A model generated the notes under the pieces. It searched no databases, was not told the DNA's origin, and saw only the letters and a program-made list of their open reading frames with translations. A stretch of DNA of 64,000 nt from a bacterium (GTDB taxonomy: Bacteria; Patescibacteriota; Doudnabacteria; UBA920). Below, in pieces: positions 3,933 to 18,941 of this stretch. The stretch is from the NCBI GenBank assembly GCA_016699995.1, contig CP064996.1, positions 412,330-476,329 of the forward strand, written 5' to 3'. The stretch's first letter is position 1, and every line of letters starts with the position of its first letter. The translations under genes and the position numbers were made by a program.

Positions 3933-4613
3933 ATGGAAAAAATTCAATTAAAGGCCGTTAGCCGAGAGTTAACTCACCGCAATTCTAAGACAGAATACCG
4001 CGCCGGTTTGATTCCTGCCGAAATGTACGGCAACAAAGTCGATAACGTTCACTTGGCTGTGGACGCAATTGAGTTTGAAAAAGTATTTCGAAAAGCTGGC
4101 GAAAGCACAGTTATCGAGCTGGTGATGCCAGACGGATCTGCTACTAATGTACTGATCCATGATGTGCAGCACCATTACTTAAATTCCAACCCGATTCACA
4201 TCGACTTCTTTGCTGTTAACATGTCCGAAAAGCTGCAGGCAACTGTACAGATCGAATACGTTGGCGAAGCTGAAGCTGTGAAAGTTTTGGGCGGTACGTT
4301 GGTAAAAGTATTAAACGAAGTAAACGTAGAATGTTTGCCTATGGACTTGCCTCCTCATTTCGAAGTGGATATTTCTGCCTTAAAGACTTTTGAAGACTCA
4401 ATCACTGTCGCTGACATTAAAGTAAGCGACAAAGTGCAGATTTTAGCCGAAGCCGAAGAAGTGATCGCTAAGGTACAGGCTCCTCGCGATGTAGAAGCAG
4501 AATTAACCAAACAAGTGGACGAAGCAGCAGCTGTAGCTGCAGCCGTAGGTCCTGAACCGGAAACTGGCAATGTTGAAGGCGGCGAAAAAGCTGACGACAA
4601 GGCTGGCGAATAA
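3933..4613 (+). CDS. rplY: 50S ribosomal protein L25 / general stress protein Ctc form
   Basis: MEKIQLKAVSRELTHRNSKTEYRAGLIPAEMYGNK...IHDVQHHYLNSNPIHIDFFAVNMSE matches the L25/Ctc N-terminal domain. An acidic C-terminal tail is typical of the Ctc form. Start is chosen at the conserved Met (3933), not the upstream TTG at 3879. Confidence 0.8.
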   Translation: MEKIQLKAVSRELTHRNSKTEYRAGLIPAEMYGNKVDNVHLAVDAIEFEKVFRKAGESTVIELVMPDGSATNVLIHDVQHHYLNSNPIHIDFFAVNMSEKLQATVQIEYVGEAEAVKVLGGTLVKVLNEVNVECLPMDLPPHFEVDISALKTFEDSITVADIKVSDKVQILAEAEEVIAKVQAPRDVEAELTKQVDEAAAVAAAVGPEPETGNVEGGEKADDKAGE

Positions 4614-13777: not shown

Positions 13778-13848
13778 GGGGGCTTCGTATAATGGTAGTA
13801 CAATGGTCTCCAAAACCATTTGCGTAGGTTCGATTCCTACAGCCCCTG
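13778..13848 (+). tRNA. tRNA-Trp (anticodon CCA)
   Basis: Acceptor GGGGGCT/AGCCCCT (G1.U72), anticodon arm ATGGT-CTCCAAA-ACCAT, T arm GTAGG-TTCGATT-CCTAC, discriminator G, CCA encoded. Confidence 0.8.
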
Positions 13849-13889
13849 CCACAAAAACACTCAGTTATGCTGAGTGTTTTTGTTTGAGG
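13844..13889 (+). repeat. direct repeat copy 1 (tRNA-Trp 3' end plus terminator), 46 nt
   Basis: CCCTGCCACAAAAACACTCAGTTATGCTGAGTGTTTTTGTTTGAGG recurs at 14484-14529 with 4 mismatches. Confidence 0.8.
13853..13884 (+). terminator. rho-independent terminator after tRNA-Trp
   Basis: AAACACTCAG-TTATG-CTGAGTGTTT followed by TTGTTTG. Confidence 0.75.
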
Positions 13890-13908: not shown

Positions 13909-14433
13909 GTGTATAATAAGTTTATGAGTAAAATACTTATTGTAATTGGGATACTAGGTGCAATCGTTATTGTGCTAAAACTTGTATTGAACAATACTGA
14001 AGCAGAAGCATATCCTTTTGAGAGGAAACCAAATTTTCTGACACCTAGTGAAATGGCTTTTTTTAGAGTTTTATTGAAAATAATAAATGATCAGTATTTT
14101 GTTTTTCCACAAGTACATCTGGCTAGTATTTTGCAGGTAAAAAAGGGAGAATTTGATAGAAAGGAGTGGAAAAGATATTTTAACAAACTAATTCAAAAAT
14201 CTTTCGATTTCGTTATCTTAGATAGGGAAACCTTAAACCCTCTGCTTGTAATCGAATTAGATGATTATACACATTTACAGAGTAAGCGAATTAAGAGGGA
14301 TCTATTTGTAGATAACGCCTTAAAATCAGCCCAAATCAATATCTTACATATTAAGTGTGAAAAGGAGTACAATATCGAAGAACTAAGAACTCTAATTTTC
14401 CAAGCACTATCTCATCCTGGTGAACGACAGTAA
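13909..14433 (+). CDS. DUF2726-family protein (restriction-endonuclease-like fold) with N-terminal TM helix
   Basis: FLTPSEMAFFRVLLKII...VFPQVHLASIL...QKSFDFVILDRETLNPLLVIELDDYTHLQSKRIKRDLFVDNALKSAQINILHI fits the DUF2726 pattern l.p.E..f...L...y.vf.qv.l..il....fDFvl.d......l.aIELDD.sH....RD.f. AT-rich relative to neighbours. Confidence 0.6.
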   Translation: MYNKFMSKILIVIGILGAIVIVLKLVLNNTEAEAYPFERKPNFLTPSEMAFFRVLLKIINDQYFVFPQVHLASILQVKKGEFDRKEWKRYFNKLIQKSFDFVILDRETLNPLLVIELDDYTHLQSKRIKRDLFVDNALKSAQINILHIKCEKEYNIEELRTLIFQALSHPGERQ

Positions 14434-14483: not shown

Positions 14484-14529
14484 CCCTGCCACAAAAACAC
14501 TCAGTCATGCTAGGTGTTTTTGTTTGGGT
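14484..14529 (+). repeat. direct repeat copy 2, with slightly degraded terminator hairpin
   Basis: ACACCCTGCCACAAAAACACTCAGTCATGCTAGGTGTTTTTGTTTGGG. One hairpin position is now an A.C mismatch. Confidence 0.8.
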
Positions 14530-15444: not shown

Positions 15445-15542
15445 GAATTATATTGTGCCTCCGTACTAAGATTTTATAAGCCTATTTTACCATATTTGTC
15501 TAATTTTGTCAATATCACTCGATTTACTGATATAATCAATCT

Positions 15543-15962
15543 ATGGAAATAAACTATATTGCGGTACTAGTTGCCGCTGTTGCGCAATTCATTTTTGGCG
15601 CAATTTGGTACATGCCGCTGTTTGGCGGCATGTGGGGCAAGATCCATGGCTTTGATGCTCACAGTAAAGAAGCTCAGGATGAGATGCGCAAAGGCATGAT
15701 GCCTTTGTTGGTTATTCAGTTTATTGGTACATTAGTCACTTCGTATGTTTTTGCACTCCTATACAAAGACATGCCCAGCCAGTGGCACGCCTACGGTTTC
15801 GCCGGCTTTTTGTGGTTAGGATTTATGGTCCCTACTCAAGTTGCGGCAGTATTGTTTGGCGGCACAGAACCAAAATGGGTTACCAAAAAAATCGCCATTA
15901 TGGCTGGAGCAGCTTTGGGTTGTATGATGATTTTGGCTTTCACGATCAGCGCTTTCAACTAA
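15543..15962 (+). CDS. DUF1761-like polytopic membrane protein
   Basis: LVAAVAQFIFGAIWYMPLFGGMWGK N-terminus is typical of DUF1761 (inference from memory). Confidence 0.5.
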   Translation: MEINYIAVLVAAVAQFIFGAIWYMPLFGGMWGKIHGFDAHSKEAQDEMRKGMMPLLVIQFIGTLVTSYVFALLYKDMPSQWHAYGFAGFLWLGFMVPTQVAAVLFGGTEPKWVTKKIAIMAGAALGCMMILAFTISAFN

Positions 15963-16014
15963 AATCCAAAAAACTGCCTTACCTAATGGGGCAGTTTTTT
16001 GTTATGCTATTTTC

Positions 16015-16557
16015 ATGACCGAGCAGGATATTAGAAATTTGATTTTAGATGATAGTGAAATGATGAATGTGTTAAAGGCCGTGAAGGACCTGCGACTACC
16101 GGATTGCTGGATAGGAGCGGGTTTCGTAAGGAATAAAGTTTGGAACTACTTACATCAATATCCTAACGACCTTAATTCGTCCGACATTGATGTTGTTTAT
16201 TATAATGATCGTAACACCGATTCAGAGCAGGAAAAAGCTATCGAAAATGCTTTAGCTCAGAAAATCTCCAGCGATTGGTCTGTTACGAACCAGGCTCGAA
16301 TGCACACGGAAAATGGAGATGAGCAATATACGTCTACTGAGGATGCGATTAGCTATTGGCCAGAGACTGCTACTGCAGTCGCGGTACGGCTCGGCCAAAG
16401 CCATGAATTGGAGATTATTGCCCCGTATGGTTTAGACGATCTGCTTTCTATGATTATAAGAATGTCACCAAAATTTAAAGATCCTAACAAGTTCAAGCAG
16501 AGGCTATCAAGTAAGCGCTGGCAGGAGAGATGGCCACAAGTTACAATTATTAATTAG
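16015..16557 (+). CDS. small nucleotidyltransferase-family protein (about 180 aa stand-alone NTase)
   Basis: LPDCWIGAGFVRNKVWNYLH...SDIDVVYYND carries a G[GS]-x9-13-DhD nucleotidyltransferase signature. Confidence 0.5.
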   Translation: MTEQDIRNLILDDSEMMNVLKAVKDLRLPDCWIGAGFVRNKVWNYLHQYPNDLNSSDIDVVYYNDRNTDSEQEKAIENALAQKISSDWSVTNQARMHTENGDEQYTSTEDAISYWPETATAVAVRLGQSHELEIIAPYGLDDLLSMIIRMSPKFKDPNKFKQRLSSKRWQERWPQVTIIN

Positions 16558-16562
16558 ATTTT

Positions 16563-17153
16563 ATGAGTATAGAACAAAATCGATTCGGTGAACAATTTTC
16601 GGAACAAGAAAGTCGTCAGCAAAGATGGAATGAACTTACTGTGGAGATTGACCAAATAAAAGATCGTTTAGGTAAAGGGATAGACGAAGGTATTAAAGAA
16701 GCTGTCATTGGTCTTCGAGCTTTGGATGTGAACGTAACCCAATCATGTGAAGGTCATAATGATCACGGGACAGGCGGGCCTTACATCGACGTAGAGTCTG
16801 ATTTGAATACAGTCCATGAGAAAGTATTGGAGCCTATGTATGGCAACCTGGACGATAAGGAAACACAGCAGAAATTTGACGATTTGGTAGAAGAAATTAA
16901 TTATAATAATTTGCGCGAAAGAAAAAAGCTGATCGAATTACTAGATGAATTCTATACCGGGCGAGAGACTCCTTATGAAATACGGCTATCCGTGAGCCCA
17001 ATGGCAAGATCTTGGAGCCGGCTAGAAAATCAGGGCGTGGGGTTACAAACGATTGAAGAAGACGCTGAAAAAAAGAACTTGCGATTAAAAATGTTTAAGG
17101 CCGAAATGGACGATTTTAAAGAATTTTTAAAGAACAAATTTTTCCAAACCTAA
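16563..17153 (+). CDS. hypothetical protein, acidic coiled-coil-rich with an SCEGHNDHGTGG segment
   Basis: 6 nt after the NTase stop and 17 nt before the kinase, implying an operon. Confidence 0.45.
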   Translation: MSIEQNRFGEQFSEQESRQQRWNELTVEIDQIKDRLGKGIDEGIKEAVIGLRALDVNVTQSCEGHNDHGTGGPYIDVESDLNTVHEKVLEPMYGNLDDKETQQKFDDLVEEINYNNLRERKKLIELLDEFYTGRETPYEIRLSVSPMARSWSRLENQGVGLQTIEEDAEKKNLRLKMFKAEMDDFKEFLKNKFFQT

Positions 17154-17169
17154 TTGAACAAGCAAACTG

Positions 17170-17757
17170 ATGCCTAAACCTGTGATCATCTTAGTAAACG
17201 GTTTGCCGGCAACTGGCAAAACCACCATAGCGACGAAAATCGCCGGTCATTTGCAATGGCCGATTTTTCGCAAGGATGACATCAAAGAGCAGCTCGCAGA
17301 TAGATTAAATGAATTTAACCTCGAAAGTTCTCATCGTTTAGGATTAGTGTCGCGGGTTATGCTGCGATATATCACAGAACAGCTTTCCCGATCCAATTCA
17401 AATTTTATAATCGACTCCAATTTTTCCAACGGCGTTCAGACAGACGAGTTTATTAACATGATGAAAAACGCTCGCCACCGTATCATCGAGGTGTTCCTTC
17501 ACACGGACGGCGAAGTGCTCTATGAAAGATTTAGGGACCGAATTAAGGATCGGCATCCGATCCATTTAGAACACTTTCAGGGCTTTGAAGATTTTAGAGA
17601 AACTATCAGTAAAGGATCGCTGCAGCCATTGTCTTTAGACGGAATCGTTATTAGAGTCGATACAACCGATTTTAGTAAATTGGATGAAAGTAAATTGCTA
17701 GAGGAAATCAAGAATTCATTAAATAATATTTATGAACATAATAGCGATTGGATTTGA
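17170..17757 (+). CDS. P-loop kinase-like ATPase (AAA_33/zeta-toxin/Cpt-like fold)
   Basis: Walker A VIILVNGLPATGKTTIATKIA at the N-terminus. Small-molecule or polynucleotide kinase architecture of about 190 aa. Confidence 0.55.
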   Translation: MPKPVIILVNGLPATGKTTIATKIAGHLQWPIFRKDDIKEQLADRLNEFNLESSHRLGLVSRVMLRYITEQLSRSNSNFIIDSNFSNGVQTDEFINMMKNARHRIIEVFLHTDGEVLYERFRDRIKDRHPIHLEHFQGFEDFRETISKGSLQPLSLDGIVIRVDTTDFSKLDESKLLEEIKNSLNNIYEHNSDWI

Positions 17758-17968
17758 TTACGGTGGAGTTATTGGGCTGCATAAAAGAGATTGAAGGAAA
17801 GCGGCTATAAATTAGGGATGTTGAGTAATAACTCCAAAGAGAAAACAGTTCAGAGATTGGATTCACTCCTATCCTGTATTTAAACGTTCGACAGCTCGAA
17901 GCCAGGCTTAAAGAGTTGGGAATTTTTTAGCCCTATCTATATATCTCGACTACAGGTATGATATAGAT

Positions 17969-18355
17969 ATGTCGGCACTGCAAAAGGAGCAAATTTACGT
18001 AGAATTGCGCAAATATCATTTGGACGAACTTCCAGATTCTTTTGCTAATCCTAAGCTAAATGAACTACTAGCCGAGTACCGGCTGCTGGAAGACCAGTCG
18101 ATCAGCATGCTGCTTGGGTTGGTAAATGGAAAGTCAGAAATTGCAGACTTTTCCAATGACTACGAAAATTTCGCTGCTAAAATTGAAATGTTAAATGATG
18201 TAGAAGATAAAAATGATAAGCAGCATTTTCATTCCAAGCTGGAGAGCTTAAAATATATTATTTCTATGGCCCAAGCCGCATCCTTTACCATTAGGCCAGT
18301 AAGAAAAATTAAACAGTCCAGCAGAGCAGTCGTGACAAAGATCAATAAAAAATGA
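17969..18355 (+). CDS. hypothetical protein (128 aa)
   Basis: Track ORF followed by a terminator. No motif. Confidence 0.4.
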   Translation: MSALQKEQIYVELRKYHLDELPDSFANPKLNELLAEYRLLEDQSISMLLGLVNGKSEIADFSNDYENFAAKIEMLNDVEDKNDKQHFHSKLESLKYIISMAQAASFTIRPVRKIKQSSRAVVTKINKK

Positions 18356-18386
18356 AACCGCGTTGTAACTCAAAGCGGTTTTTTGT
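18355..18386 (+). terminator. rho-independent terminator
   Basis: AAACCGCG...GCGGTTTTTTG. Confidence 0.5.
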
Positions 18387-18398
18387 TATCCTGATTTT

Positions 18399-18941
18399 AT
18401 GAATTTAAATGAATTGTTTGAAAAGGCCATCGTGCACAGAGAGCAACATCAGTGTAGCGCTTATCCCTATGAAAGCTATGATAGACTTTTTGAGATTGTT
18501 ACCGTCGAAAATCCAGACCGTATACTGGAGATAGGCTCTGGCTGCGGTTTTAGCGCTTGCGTTATGATGCTGGCCAGCCCAAGATTGCAGCTGGATAGTA
18601 TAGAGAAAGACCCAGAGCACGTTAAAGCTGCGCGTCAATTTTTGCAGGAAAATTTAACTCCGCAGGCAGCAGGGCGTGTAAGGATTATTGAGGGTATCGC
18701 GGAAGAAGTTTTAGAAAGATTGACTGAAGGGTATGATTTAATTTTCTTTGATGGTTATCAGATCCATTATGAATTTTTACCTCATTACAAAAGGCTGCTT
18801 AAAGCCGGCGGGCTGTTGGTTTTAGGAAACACGCATTTGAGCAGTAAAACCAGTGATAATTTCTTTGCGGAATTAAGTAACGGCAAGGATGGGAAGATCA
18901 TGGACCGATTCGCAGAAACGATACTGGCCCGCCGCATATAA
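18399..18941 (+). CDS. class I SAM-dependent O-methyltransferase (family 3, YrrM/TrmR-like)
   Basis: Motif I ILEIGSGCGFSACVMM and motif II DLIFFDG. Confidence 0.65.
   Translation: MNLNELFEKAIVHREQHQCSAYPYESYDRLFEIVTVENPDRILEIGSGCGFSACVMMLASPRLQLDSIEKDPEHVKAARQFLQENLTPQAAGRVRIIEGIAEEVLERLTEGYDLIFFDGYQIHYEFLPHYKRLLKAGGLLVLGNTHLSSKTSDNFFAELSNGKDGKIMDRFAETILARRI

Follow-up and report, generated by a model that had tools for sequence, protein, structure and literature searches.

Three adjacent genes of a compact Patescibacteria genome are probably independently distributed accessory genes, one of them from a large, unannotated family predicted to have a TYW3/Taw3-like fold

Introduction

Do three neighbouring genes on contig CP064996.1, here termed A, B and C, encode a dedicated three-component system, or do they only share a transcript? 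The genes lie in a 64-kb stretch of this contig (the window, to which all coordinates refer), taken from a compact, ~0.94-Mb genome of Patescibacteria type (Candidate Phyla Radiation, CPR). An original prediction, made from the DNA letters, had described a tightly coupled operon of a small nucleotidyltransferase, an acidic protein of no recognisable family and a P-loop kinase, and had considered the trio as a unit. The open reading frame (ORF) listing bears out the three plus-strand ORFs and their lengths:

16015-16557, + strand: gene A, 180 aa, PF06042 (NTP_transf_6/DUF925/COG3575) nucleotidyltransferase
16563-17153, + strand: gene B, 196 aa, acidic, large unannotated family, fold predicted to be TYW3/Taw3-like
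17170-17757, + strand: gene C, 195 aa, P-loop kinase (AAA_33), 2RHM-like

The gap between A and B is 5 nt (16558-16562) and that between B and C 16 nt (17154-17169), correcting the values of 6 and 17 nt given originally.

Based on the analysis below, we conclude that A, B and C are probably three independently distributed accessory genes sharing one transcript, and not a dedicated three-component system. The trio then is a local arrangement of no import as a system, with A and C ordinary members of known, uncharacterised families. The value of the locus lies in B. Its family, with ~3,000 clusters (50% identity) found mainly in Patescibacteria, has no entry in Pfam, NCBIfam, PADLOC or PHROGs.

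Distribution of A, B and C

To collect B loci, we scanned a single genome of each species with a degenerate pattern derived from a 22-sequence alignment, which yielded 57 other genomes with a B homologue. Searches with single-sequence phmmer and profile hidden Markov models detected an A homologue in the fetched flanks of none of these loci (0/57) and a C homologue in a single one (1/57). After clustering of the neighbours within 4 kb, even the commonest neighbour family was present in just 4 of the 57 loci. The full A-B-C trio was found only in the window's own genome (L001) and recurred in no non-sister genome. The view of the trio as a unit, which the original prediction would have given up if the genes did not co-occur in other genomes, is thereby nearly overturned.

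The closest relative (L061, 83% identity in B) has kept the order DUF1761-A-B, and its next gene is unrelated to C. At 53% identity in B (L059, 5047-8615), genes for an AAA_18 kinase, a SpoU methylase, an APH phosphotransferase and, directly upstream, a class-I methyltransferase precede the B homologue. Some 2.4 kb away from the homologue are the genes of a DnaG-type zinc-ribbon protein, a pair of serine recombinases and a type IV secretion system (T4SS) coupling protein, an accessory or mobile context.

Homologues of C at 48-53% identity exist in only four lineages, and two orthologues (51-53% identity) occur without B. In the first of these loci (L063, 439-3959), a Phd/ParE pair and a glyoxalase gene come after the C orthologue, in the position held in the window by u128, a 128-aa ORF, and no B is present in the 438 nt upstream. 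The same locus is syntenic with the window at the methyltransferase (E 1e-56)-UppS (E 6e-96)-GT4 genes and differs in gene content, so that the stretch upstream of methyltransferase-UppS is a variable hotspot. In the second (L069), C is preceded by the gene of a helix-turn-helix (HTH) protein. More distant C-like kinases with 32-34% identity lie between biotin-protein ligase and nitroreductase genes on three related contigs (L070, L080 and L081; gene ~4001-4600), the nitroreductase start overlapping the kinase stop by 11 nt. A further homologue precedes an acyltransferase gene (L082), and one is found beside an insertion sequence (IS) element on a Streptomyces plasmid. Altogether, C homologues occupy at least five contexts other than that of the window.

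Genomic setting and transcription signals

On one side of the A-B-C block lies tRNA-Trp, on the other a conserved methyltransferase-UppS-glycosyltransferase operon; the stretch between them is variable and lower in GC. The gene order is tRNA-Thr, rpmG, tRNA-Trp (13778-13851), a DUF2726 gene, two small minus-strand ORFs, the gene of a DUF1761 membrane protein, A, B and C, and continues with u128, a class-I methyltransferase, UppS and three GT4 glycosyltransferases. Across 13.6-18.6 kb the GC content is 0.35-0.41, compared with ~0.435 for the whole window. The following further features frame the block:

15967-16001, + strand: hairpin and T-run, intrinsic-terminator-like, between the DUF1761 gene and A
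16003-16008, + strand: -10-like hexamer TATGCT, ending 6 nt ahead of the ATG of A, leaderless-type geometry (read from the sequence)
17969-18355, + strand: u128, function-unassigned 128-aa ORF, last gene ahead of the downstream terminator
18354-18383, + strand: hairpin and T-run terminator after u128
15531-15545, 16003-16017, 17957-17971 and 18387-18401: TANNNT-to-start stretches, with the u128 hexamer TATGAT at 17957-17962

Gene spacing was evaluated on a crude gene map of the window with a coding fraction of 0.88. Same-strand gaps had a median of 31 nt, with 41% of them at 20 nt or less and 35% at 5 nt or less, and two short gaps in a row are expected in about 1 in 6 cases. The A-B-C spacing is no tighter than chance gives in this window.

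RNA folding of 15963-16014 resulted in a 15-bp stem of -18.7 kcal/mol followed by UUUUUU, and the hairpin after u128 gave -12.1 kcal/mol, likewise followed by UUUUUU; together, the two terminators bracket A-B-C-u128. A TANNNT hexamer ends exactly 6 nt ahead of the ATG of DUF1761 (TATAAT), A (TATGCT), u128 (TATGAT) and the methyltransferase gene (TATCCT), a leaderless-type geometry seen for 8 of the 58 window genes versus a background of 5%. We regard the hexamer before A as a candidate promoter. Inspection of the starts of B and C revealed neither a -10-like hexamer nor a Shine-Dalgarno core. As only 13 of the 58 window genes have a Shine-Dalgarno-like core, its absence at B and C is normal here. 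Judged from these signals, A, B and C are probably co-transcribed: transcription would start at the leaderless-type -10 element before A and then run through B and C. Of the tightly coupled operon proposed originally, co-transcription thus stays plausible by virtue of the terminators and the single -10-like element, whereas the spacing turned out to be ordinary for the window.

Two repeats were observed in this region. Copies of a 43-nt direct repeat, 93% identical, lie at 13844-13886 and 14484-14526 and flank the DUF2726 gene (13909-14433), where the GC content is 0.35-0.375. The first copy consists of the final 8 nt of tRNA-Trp and a terminator hairpin, the att-like repeats adjoining tRNA-Trp. 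The arrangement has the appearance of a single gene, that of DUF2726, inserted at the 3' end of the tRNA and accompanied by an att-like duplication. A 28-nt repeat (23/28 identical; 15991-16018 and 18375-18402), composed of a T-run and GTTATxCTxxTTTxATGA, covers the terminator-to-start junction of gene A and appears again before the methyltransferase gene, flanking the 2,384-bp A-B-C-u128 block. We considered A-B-C as an element integrated via this repeat and could not confirm it; the repeat is short and T-rich and coincides with terminator-to-start junctions. It may mark an insertion; alternatively, it may be no att site and instead result from convergence of terminator, -10 and start signals.

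For u128, Pfam returned three matches, all under the cut-off and none significant, and NCBIfam, PADLOC and PHROGs returned none. A u128 homologue (E 7e-25) was observed on a Doudnabacteria contig (L003, 2722-3108), 1.7 kb downstream of a B homologue, as the only other recurrence of any window neighbour near B. A, B and C have no paralogues within the window, and the fusion partners of B described below are not encoded there either.

Independent enzymes or a functional module

The restriction of the trio to the window's genome, the sister genome differing at C, the mostly solitary distributions of the genes and their location in a variable, lower-GC stretch next to a tRNA together lead us to regard the products of A, B and C as probably independent accessory enzymes. 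Each would act alone as a group-transfer enzyme on a small-molecule or nucleotide-like substrate, with A transferring nucleotidyl and C phosphoryl groups, which would fit nucleotide salvage or xenobiotic modification in an organism unable to make nucleotides. B would use its conserved Asp41/Cys62/His65 cluster on a TYW3-like scaffold.

Several observations weigh against this conclusion. For all three families, the notion of independent enzymes derives from distribution and not from biochemistry. The adjacency of B and C recurs in a second lineage (L004/L065-L068), in which B is only 36-40% identical; on a 1.96-kb contig labelled Saccharibacteria (L004), C directly follows B. Furthermore, homologues of A (E 5e-49) and C (E 8.5e-33) share a tightly packed operon in another genome (L072, 2958-6821; also L073), although not as adjacent genes and with no B-family gene. 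This operon has the order NUDIX-NUDIX-AAA_33 kinase (C-like)-143 aa-HAD hydrolase-PF06042-NUDIX and lies downstream of an HTH/ImmA-like pair. By rough estimate rather than computation, a second co-occurrence of PF06042 and kinase among ~8 kinase lineages would exceed chance, PF06042 being rare. Finally, as B and C have no promoter-like elements of their own, the expression of A, B and C would be coupled. For the 143-aa protein of the operon, an assignment as nucleoside-deoxyribosyltransferase-like was considered, gained no support from Pfam and is not claimed here.

Given B-C adjacency in the second lineage and the joint presence of A and C in L072, a looser functional theme may exist. In its stronger form, B and C, joined by A in the window's lineage, would be a functional module with a single substrate, a nucleoside, nucleotide or RNA end, in a small-clade salvage or modification pathway. 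C would phosphorylate, A would add a nucleotidyl group, and the TYW3-like B would bind or modify base or ribose. This we consider conceivable but doubtful. It would account for the B-C adjacency in two lineages with divergent B and for the arrangement of the three genes, which two terminators enclose and which share just one promoter-like element. The nucleotide-handling enzymes (NUDIX and HAD) that accompany the A and C homologues in L072 may be a hint that PF06042 proteins and 2RHM-like kinases both handle nucleotides. In the same direction point the TYW3 fold, a scaffold binding nucleosides and S-adenosylmethionine (SAM; PMC5311493), the fusion of B domains to class-I methyltransferase-like domains in three proteins (P0241, P0322 and P0347), and the inability of CPR bacteria to synthesise nucleotides, as stated in a preprint (bioRxiv 10.64898/2026.07.13.738296). 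These points are countered by the absence of C from 56 of the 57 B loci and of A from all 57, by the C orthologues in L063 and L069 without B, by the 83% relative without C and by the L072 operon without a B-family gene. The two B-C lineages are probably related, and their adjacency may be a single arrangement inherited once. In addition, the acidity of B argues against RNA binding. We therefore retain the independent accessory enzymes as the preferred reading, on the distributional grounds given above.

Genes A and C

Gene A matches PF06042 with an E value of 4.8e-62 and 209 bits (cut-off 25), its residues 22-178 covering positions 2-159 of the 159 model positions. Its translation contains the motifs G34-A-G-F-V-R-N40 and S56-D-I-D-V-V61, which upholds the small nucleotidyltransferase (NTase) that had been proposed from a G-x-GFVRN...SDIDVV signature. 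The hG[GS] motif and the Dx[DE] carboxylates define the NTase fold (PMC2794190). In an alignment with 7 homologues, A35-G36-F37, D57 and D59 were invariant. Residues D57-I-D-V-V61, containing the DxD catalytic carboxylates of the fold, are encoded as follows:

16183-16197, + strand: residues D57-I-D-V-V61 of A

By sequence, A is accordingly a full member of PF06042 with an intact DxD site. Kuchta et al. placed DUF925/COG3575 in NTase-fold group XX, as single-domain, probably active proteins whose function could not be assigned (PMC2794190). The family spans many phyla, including plasmids and cassette-like arrays: 78 plasmid records from many phyla carry an A homologue at 38-50% identity, and in the 4 of these 78 contexts that were inspected the homologue stands alone beside toxin-antitoxin (TA) pairs (CcdAB), IS elements (IS66) or Vibrio cassette-like arrays. 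No match to A was obtained in a phage collection.

For gene C, comparison with Pfam yielded AAA_33 (E 1e-12), AAA_18 and Zeta_toxin (E 2e-7), and comparison with the Protein Data Bank yielded the 'putative kinase' 2RHM (Caur_3907; E 2e-22). The translation contains a Walker A motif:

17200-17223, + strand: Walker A of C, G11-L-P-A-T-G-K-T18 (GLPATGKT)

G11, P13, G16 and K17 as well as the lid arginines R120, R124 and R128 were invariant in 24 homologues. With a Pfam match above the cut-off, the Walker A motif, the lid arginines and a kinase fold, C is an AAA_33/2RHM-like kinase. The originally proposed Walker-A kinase is thus confirmed. The wider AAA_33 P-loop kinase group includes PSTK, Clostridium PNK, gluconokinase, APS kinase and CPT; C resembles CPT no more than it does PSTK, PNK or gluconokinase, and there is no relative from which a substrate can be transferred. 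The literature search on 2RHM gave nothing useful. A metagenome scan with C alone returned no match, and a scan with a two-sequence alignment returned one distant match.

C as a zeta toxin, that is, a UDP-N-acetylglucosamine (UNAG) kinase, was rejected on structure, no zeta toxin being present among the top 60 matches. The related suggestion of a TA or abortive-infection role, with C as a toxin of zeta-like kinase type and B and/or A as the antitoxin, is very improbable. It draws on the Zeta_toxin score of C (31.2 bits versus a cut-off of 22.3), on the partner gene directly upstream, as in epsilon/zeta, and on TA pairs in the same variable region of relatives (ParE in L063; PIN/Phd in L070). 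Set against this, AAA_33 outscores Zeta_toxin, and C with its 195 aa is shorter than zeta toxins of about 270-290 aa. The upstream gene encodes a protein of 196 aa with an enzyme-like invariant motif and is absent beside the C homologues in L063, L069, L070, L072, L080, L081 and L082, and kinase C is absent from 56 of the 57 B genomes. C homologues without B or A were seen in at least five contexts. PADLOC gave no family match for A or B and, for C, weak P-loop-level matches only (E 1.4e-3 or worse), leaving the original suggestion unsupported.

The spread of PF06042 genes on plasmids and in cassette-like arrays also bears on the idea that the island holds stand-alone enzymes modifying antibiotics or xenobiotics, with A resembling ANT/Lnu, C resembling CPT and B as a passenger or further modifier. 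This idea overlaps with the reading of independent accessory enzymes, and in its specific form we judge it unlikely. Compatible with it are the L059 locus, where the B homologue accompanies APH, SpoU and methyltransferase genes beside recombinase and T4SS genes, and the reported richness of CPR genomes in resistance-like genes. Yet A, B and C match no NCBIfam resistance family above the cut-off, the relation of C to CPT is no closer than to other kinases, and PF06042 has no known substrate (PMC2794190).

Gene B and its family

The B product is identical to the 'hypothetical protein IPM19_02280'. Its pI is 4.75, with 41 D+E versus 27 K+R residues, and the family median pI is 5.1. The AlphaFold model of B (predicted local distance difference test, pLDDT, 94.6; predicted template-modelling score, pTM, 0.88) shows a compact alpha/beta domain with long helices packed on a small sheet. 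The original description of B as acidic and coiled-coil rich therefore holds for the composition and not for the structure. It had also been held to belong to no described sequence family, in agreement with our searches: the sequence has no match in Pfam, NCBIfam, PADLOC, PHROGs or the Protein Data Bank sequences, the last searched by sequence and by profile. Foldseek found no match for the model.

An indexed search returned 118 B homologues, and the B profile retrieved 2,967 clusters (50% identity) at E<=1e-3 and 880 at E<=1e-30, mostly from Patescibacteria. The labels of the homologues include Saccharibacteria, Paceibacteria and Doudnabacteria. The family signature comprises D34, D41-E-G-I-K45, N-T-T-x-S61-C62-E63-G64-H65, P73 and L127-x-E-F-Y131, and in B itself the central motif reads S61-C-E-G-H-N-D-H-G-T-G-G72 in the translation. 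Its core is encoded at:

16683-16757, + strand: B residues D41-H65, family signature (I-D-E-G-I-K ... T-x-x-S-C-E-G-H)

Among 75 family sequences, S61 and G64 are invariant, and D41, G43, I44, K45, T58, C62, E63 and H65 are conserved in at least 90%. No conserved His was found past H65 in these sequences, the residues conserved there being P73, L127, E129, F130 and Y131. In close relatives of B, H68 accompanies the polar cluster of D41, C62, E63 and H65.

The domain contexts of the family are varied. We found no fusions of A-like, C-like or neighbour-like domains to B-family proteins, and long B-containing ORFs in L038, L040, L048 and L054 are without Pfam domains. Besides the methyltransferase-like fusions already mentioned, B is recurrently fused to a domain with the pattern 'GYPxSAxxAF ... 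LSKxNW', N- or C-terminally, in P0013, P0248, P0291, P0308 and P0290, and tandem B-B proteins are represented by P0239, P0249, P0267 and P0289. P0246 and P0366 combine B with a further shared domain, in which the stretch 'EPQV...GY.T..SG' resembles the B motif without its Cys. A chlamydial member from Simkania sp. (P0099) begins with MKKISLILLLATSTLFS, which resembles a signal peptide; at least some B-family members may thus be exported.

On a Skermanella sp. TT6 plasmid (NZ_CP067421.1; L078, 3935-4465), a proteobacterial B homologue of 31% identity lies between the gene of the metallochaperone AztD and those of a class III alcohol dehydrogenase, ZigA and DUF1826, in a zinc-homeostasis-type cluster. 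Read together, this neighbourhood and the Cys-x-x-His motif (with His68) hint at metal binding by B.

Comparison with known systems

The closest counterpart of A is 2LA3, a nuclear magnetic resonance structure from Streptococcus pneumoniae of the PF06042/DUF925/COG3575 nucleotidyltransferases, deposited as 'uncharacterized protein', with which A aligns end to end (E 1e-31). Both the carboxylates of the DxD motif and the glycine motif AG[SF] are conserved in A. The latter reads AGF in A and in close homologues, compared with AGS in 2LA3, and there is otherwise no substantive difference.

Epsilon/zeta TA systems resemble the locus in having a P-loop kinase gene with a tightly spaced gene upstream, and C scores above the Zeta_toxin cut-off. 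They differ from it in that the structure of C is not zeta-like, the upstream protein B is widespread, solitary and enzyme-like, and the pairing is not conserved.

The Pnkp-Hen1 cassette for bacterial RNA repair combines kinase, phosphatase and ligase with a methyltransferase. The A-B-C block has no phosphatase, ligase or Hen1 domain, the trio does not co-occur elsewhere, and B is acidic.

For B, the only putative structural relatives on the basis of the predicted model are the TYW3/Taw3 methyltransferases (PF02676; PDB 2QG3, 2DRV, 1TLJ and 2DVK). Their alpha/beta fold is made up of an N-terminal extension, SHS2 and RAGNYA. Their marks are an N-terminal Asp, a C-terminal His and a (S/T)xSSCxGR motif whose Arg yeast TYW3 requires (PMC5311493), and the paper describing the fold considers it the ninth, independently evolved class of SAM-dependent methyltransferase. 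We assembled a TYW3 set of PF02676 proteins, fetched with a human sequence as bait (99% identical to gorilla TYW3), and a Taw3 set of four archaeal sequences recovered from Protein Data Bank alignments, and ran both against the B profile by hhalign. Both runs aligned the same 29 columns, GIDEGIKE...TxQSCEGH with VDEDI...TTSSCxGR (P 5.6e-4 and 7.6e-4), pairing D41 of B with the SAM-contacting Asp and C62 with the essential Cys of TYW3.

The similarity extends to parts of the active site. The invariant N-terminal Asp of TYW3, which contacts the SAM sulfonium, is matched by D41, and the Asp-to-Cys spacing is 21 in B compared with 22-23. The B motif, T-(T)-x-S-C-E-G-H, retains Thr(-4), Ser(-1), Cys and Gly(+2), whereas Ser(-2) is not conserved and the essential Arg(+3) is replaced by His in at least 90% of the family. 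The invariant C-terminal His, contacting the SAM carboxylate, has no conserved counterpart. B furthermore has long extra helices and is acidic, whereas Taw3 carries a basic tRNA-binding patch. PF02676 gave no match to the 75 B-family members even at E<=10, and the B-family profile did not retrieve the Taw3 chains from the Protein Data Bank. Our literature search returned no paper linking TYW3 to Patescibacteria, and the literature as searched treats the fold solely in connection with wyosine synthesis in archaea and eukaryotes. Bacteria, to which the hosts of B belong, are not known to make wybutosine.

Owing to the missing PF02676 match, the exchange of Arg for His, the lack of a downstream His and the acidity of B, we do not call B a TYW3; it is a probable distant structural relative with a remodelled site. 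The cluster of D41, C62, E63 and H65 on a nucleoside/SAM-binding scaffold, as placed by the model, suggests that B would be an enzyme dependent on a thiol or a metal, or else a divergent transferase using SAM. The two kinds of fusion, the tandem B-B proteins, the methyltransferase gene directly ahead of B in L059 and the zinc-homeostasis neighbours in Skermanella are hints to its activity, none of them decisive. Taken further, B could represent a Patescibacteria-expanded branch of the TYW3/Taw3 fold whose remodelled Asp-Cys-His site performs new chemistry, thiol- or metal-dependent or an unusual SAM transfer, and which in the window's clade partners the adjacent 2RHM-like kinase and PF06042 protein on one nucleoside, nucleotide or RNA-end substrate. 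We put this combined proposal forward as a long shot; if true, the partnership would provide first functions for three orphan families at once. A bacterial TYW3-like branch with an altered catalytic motif, if true, would widen that enzyme class and offer a handle on CPR 'dark matter'.

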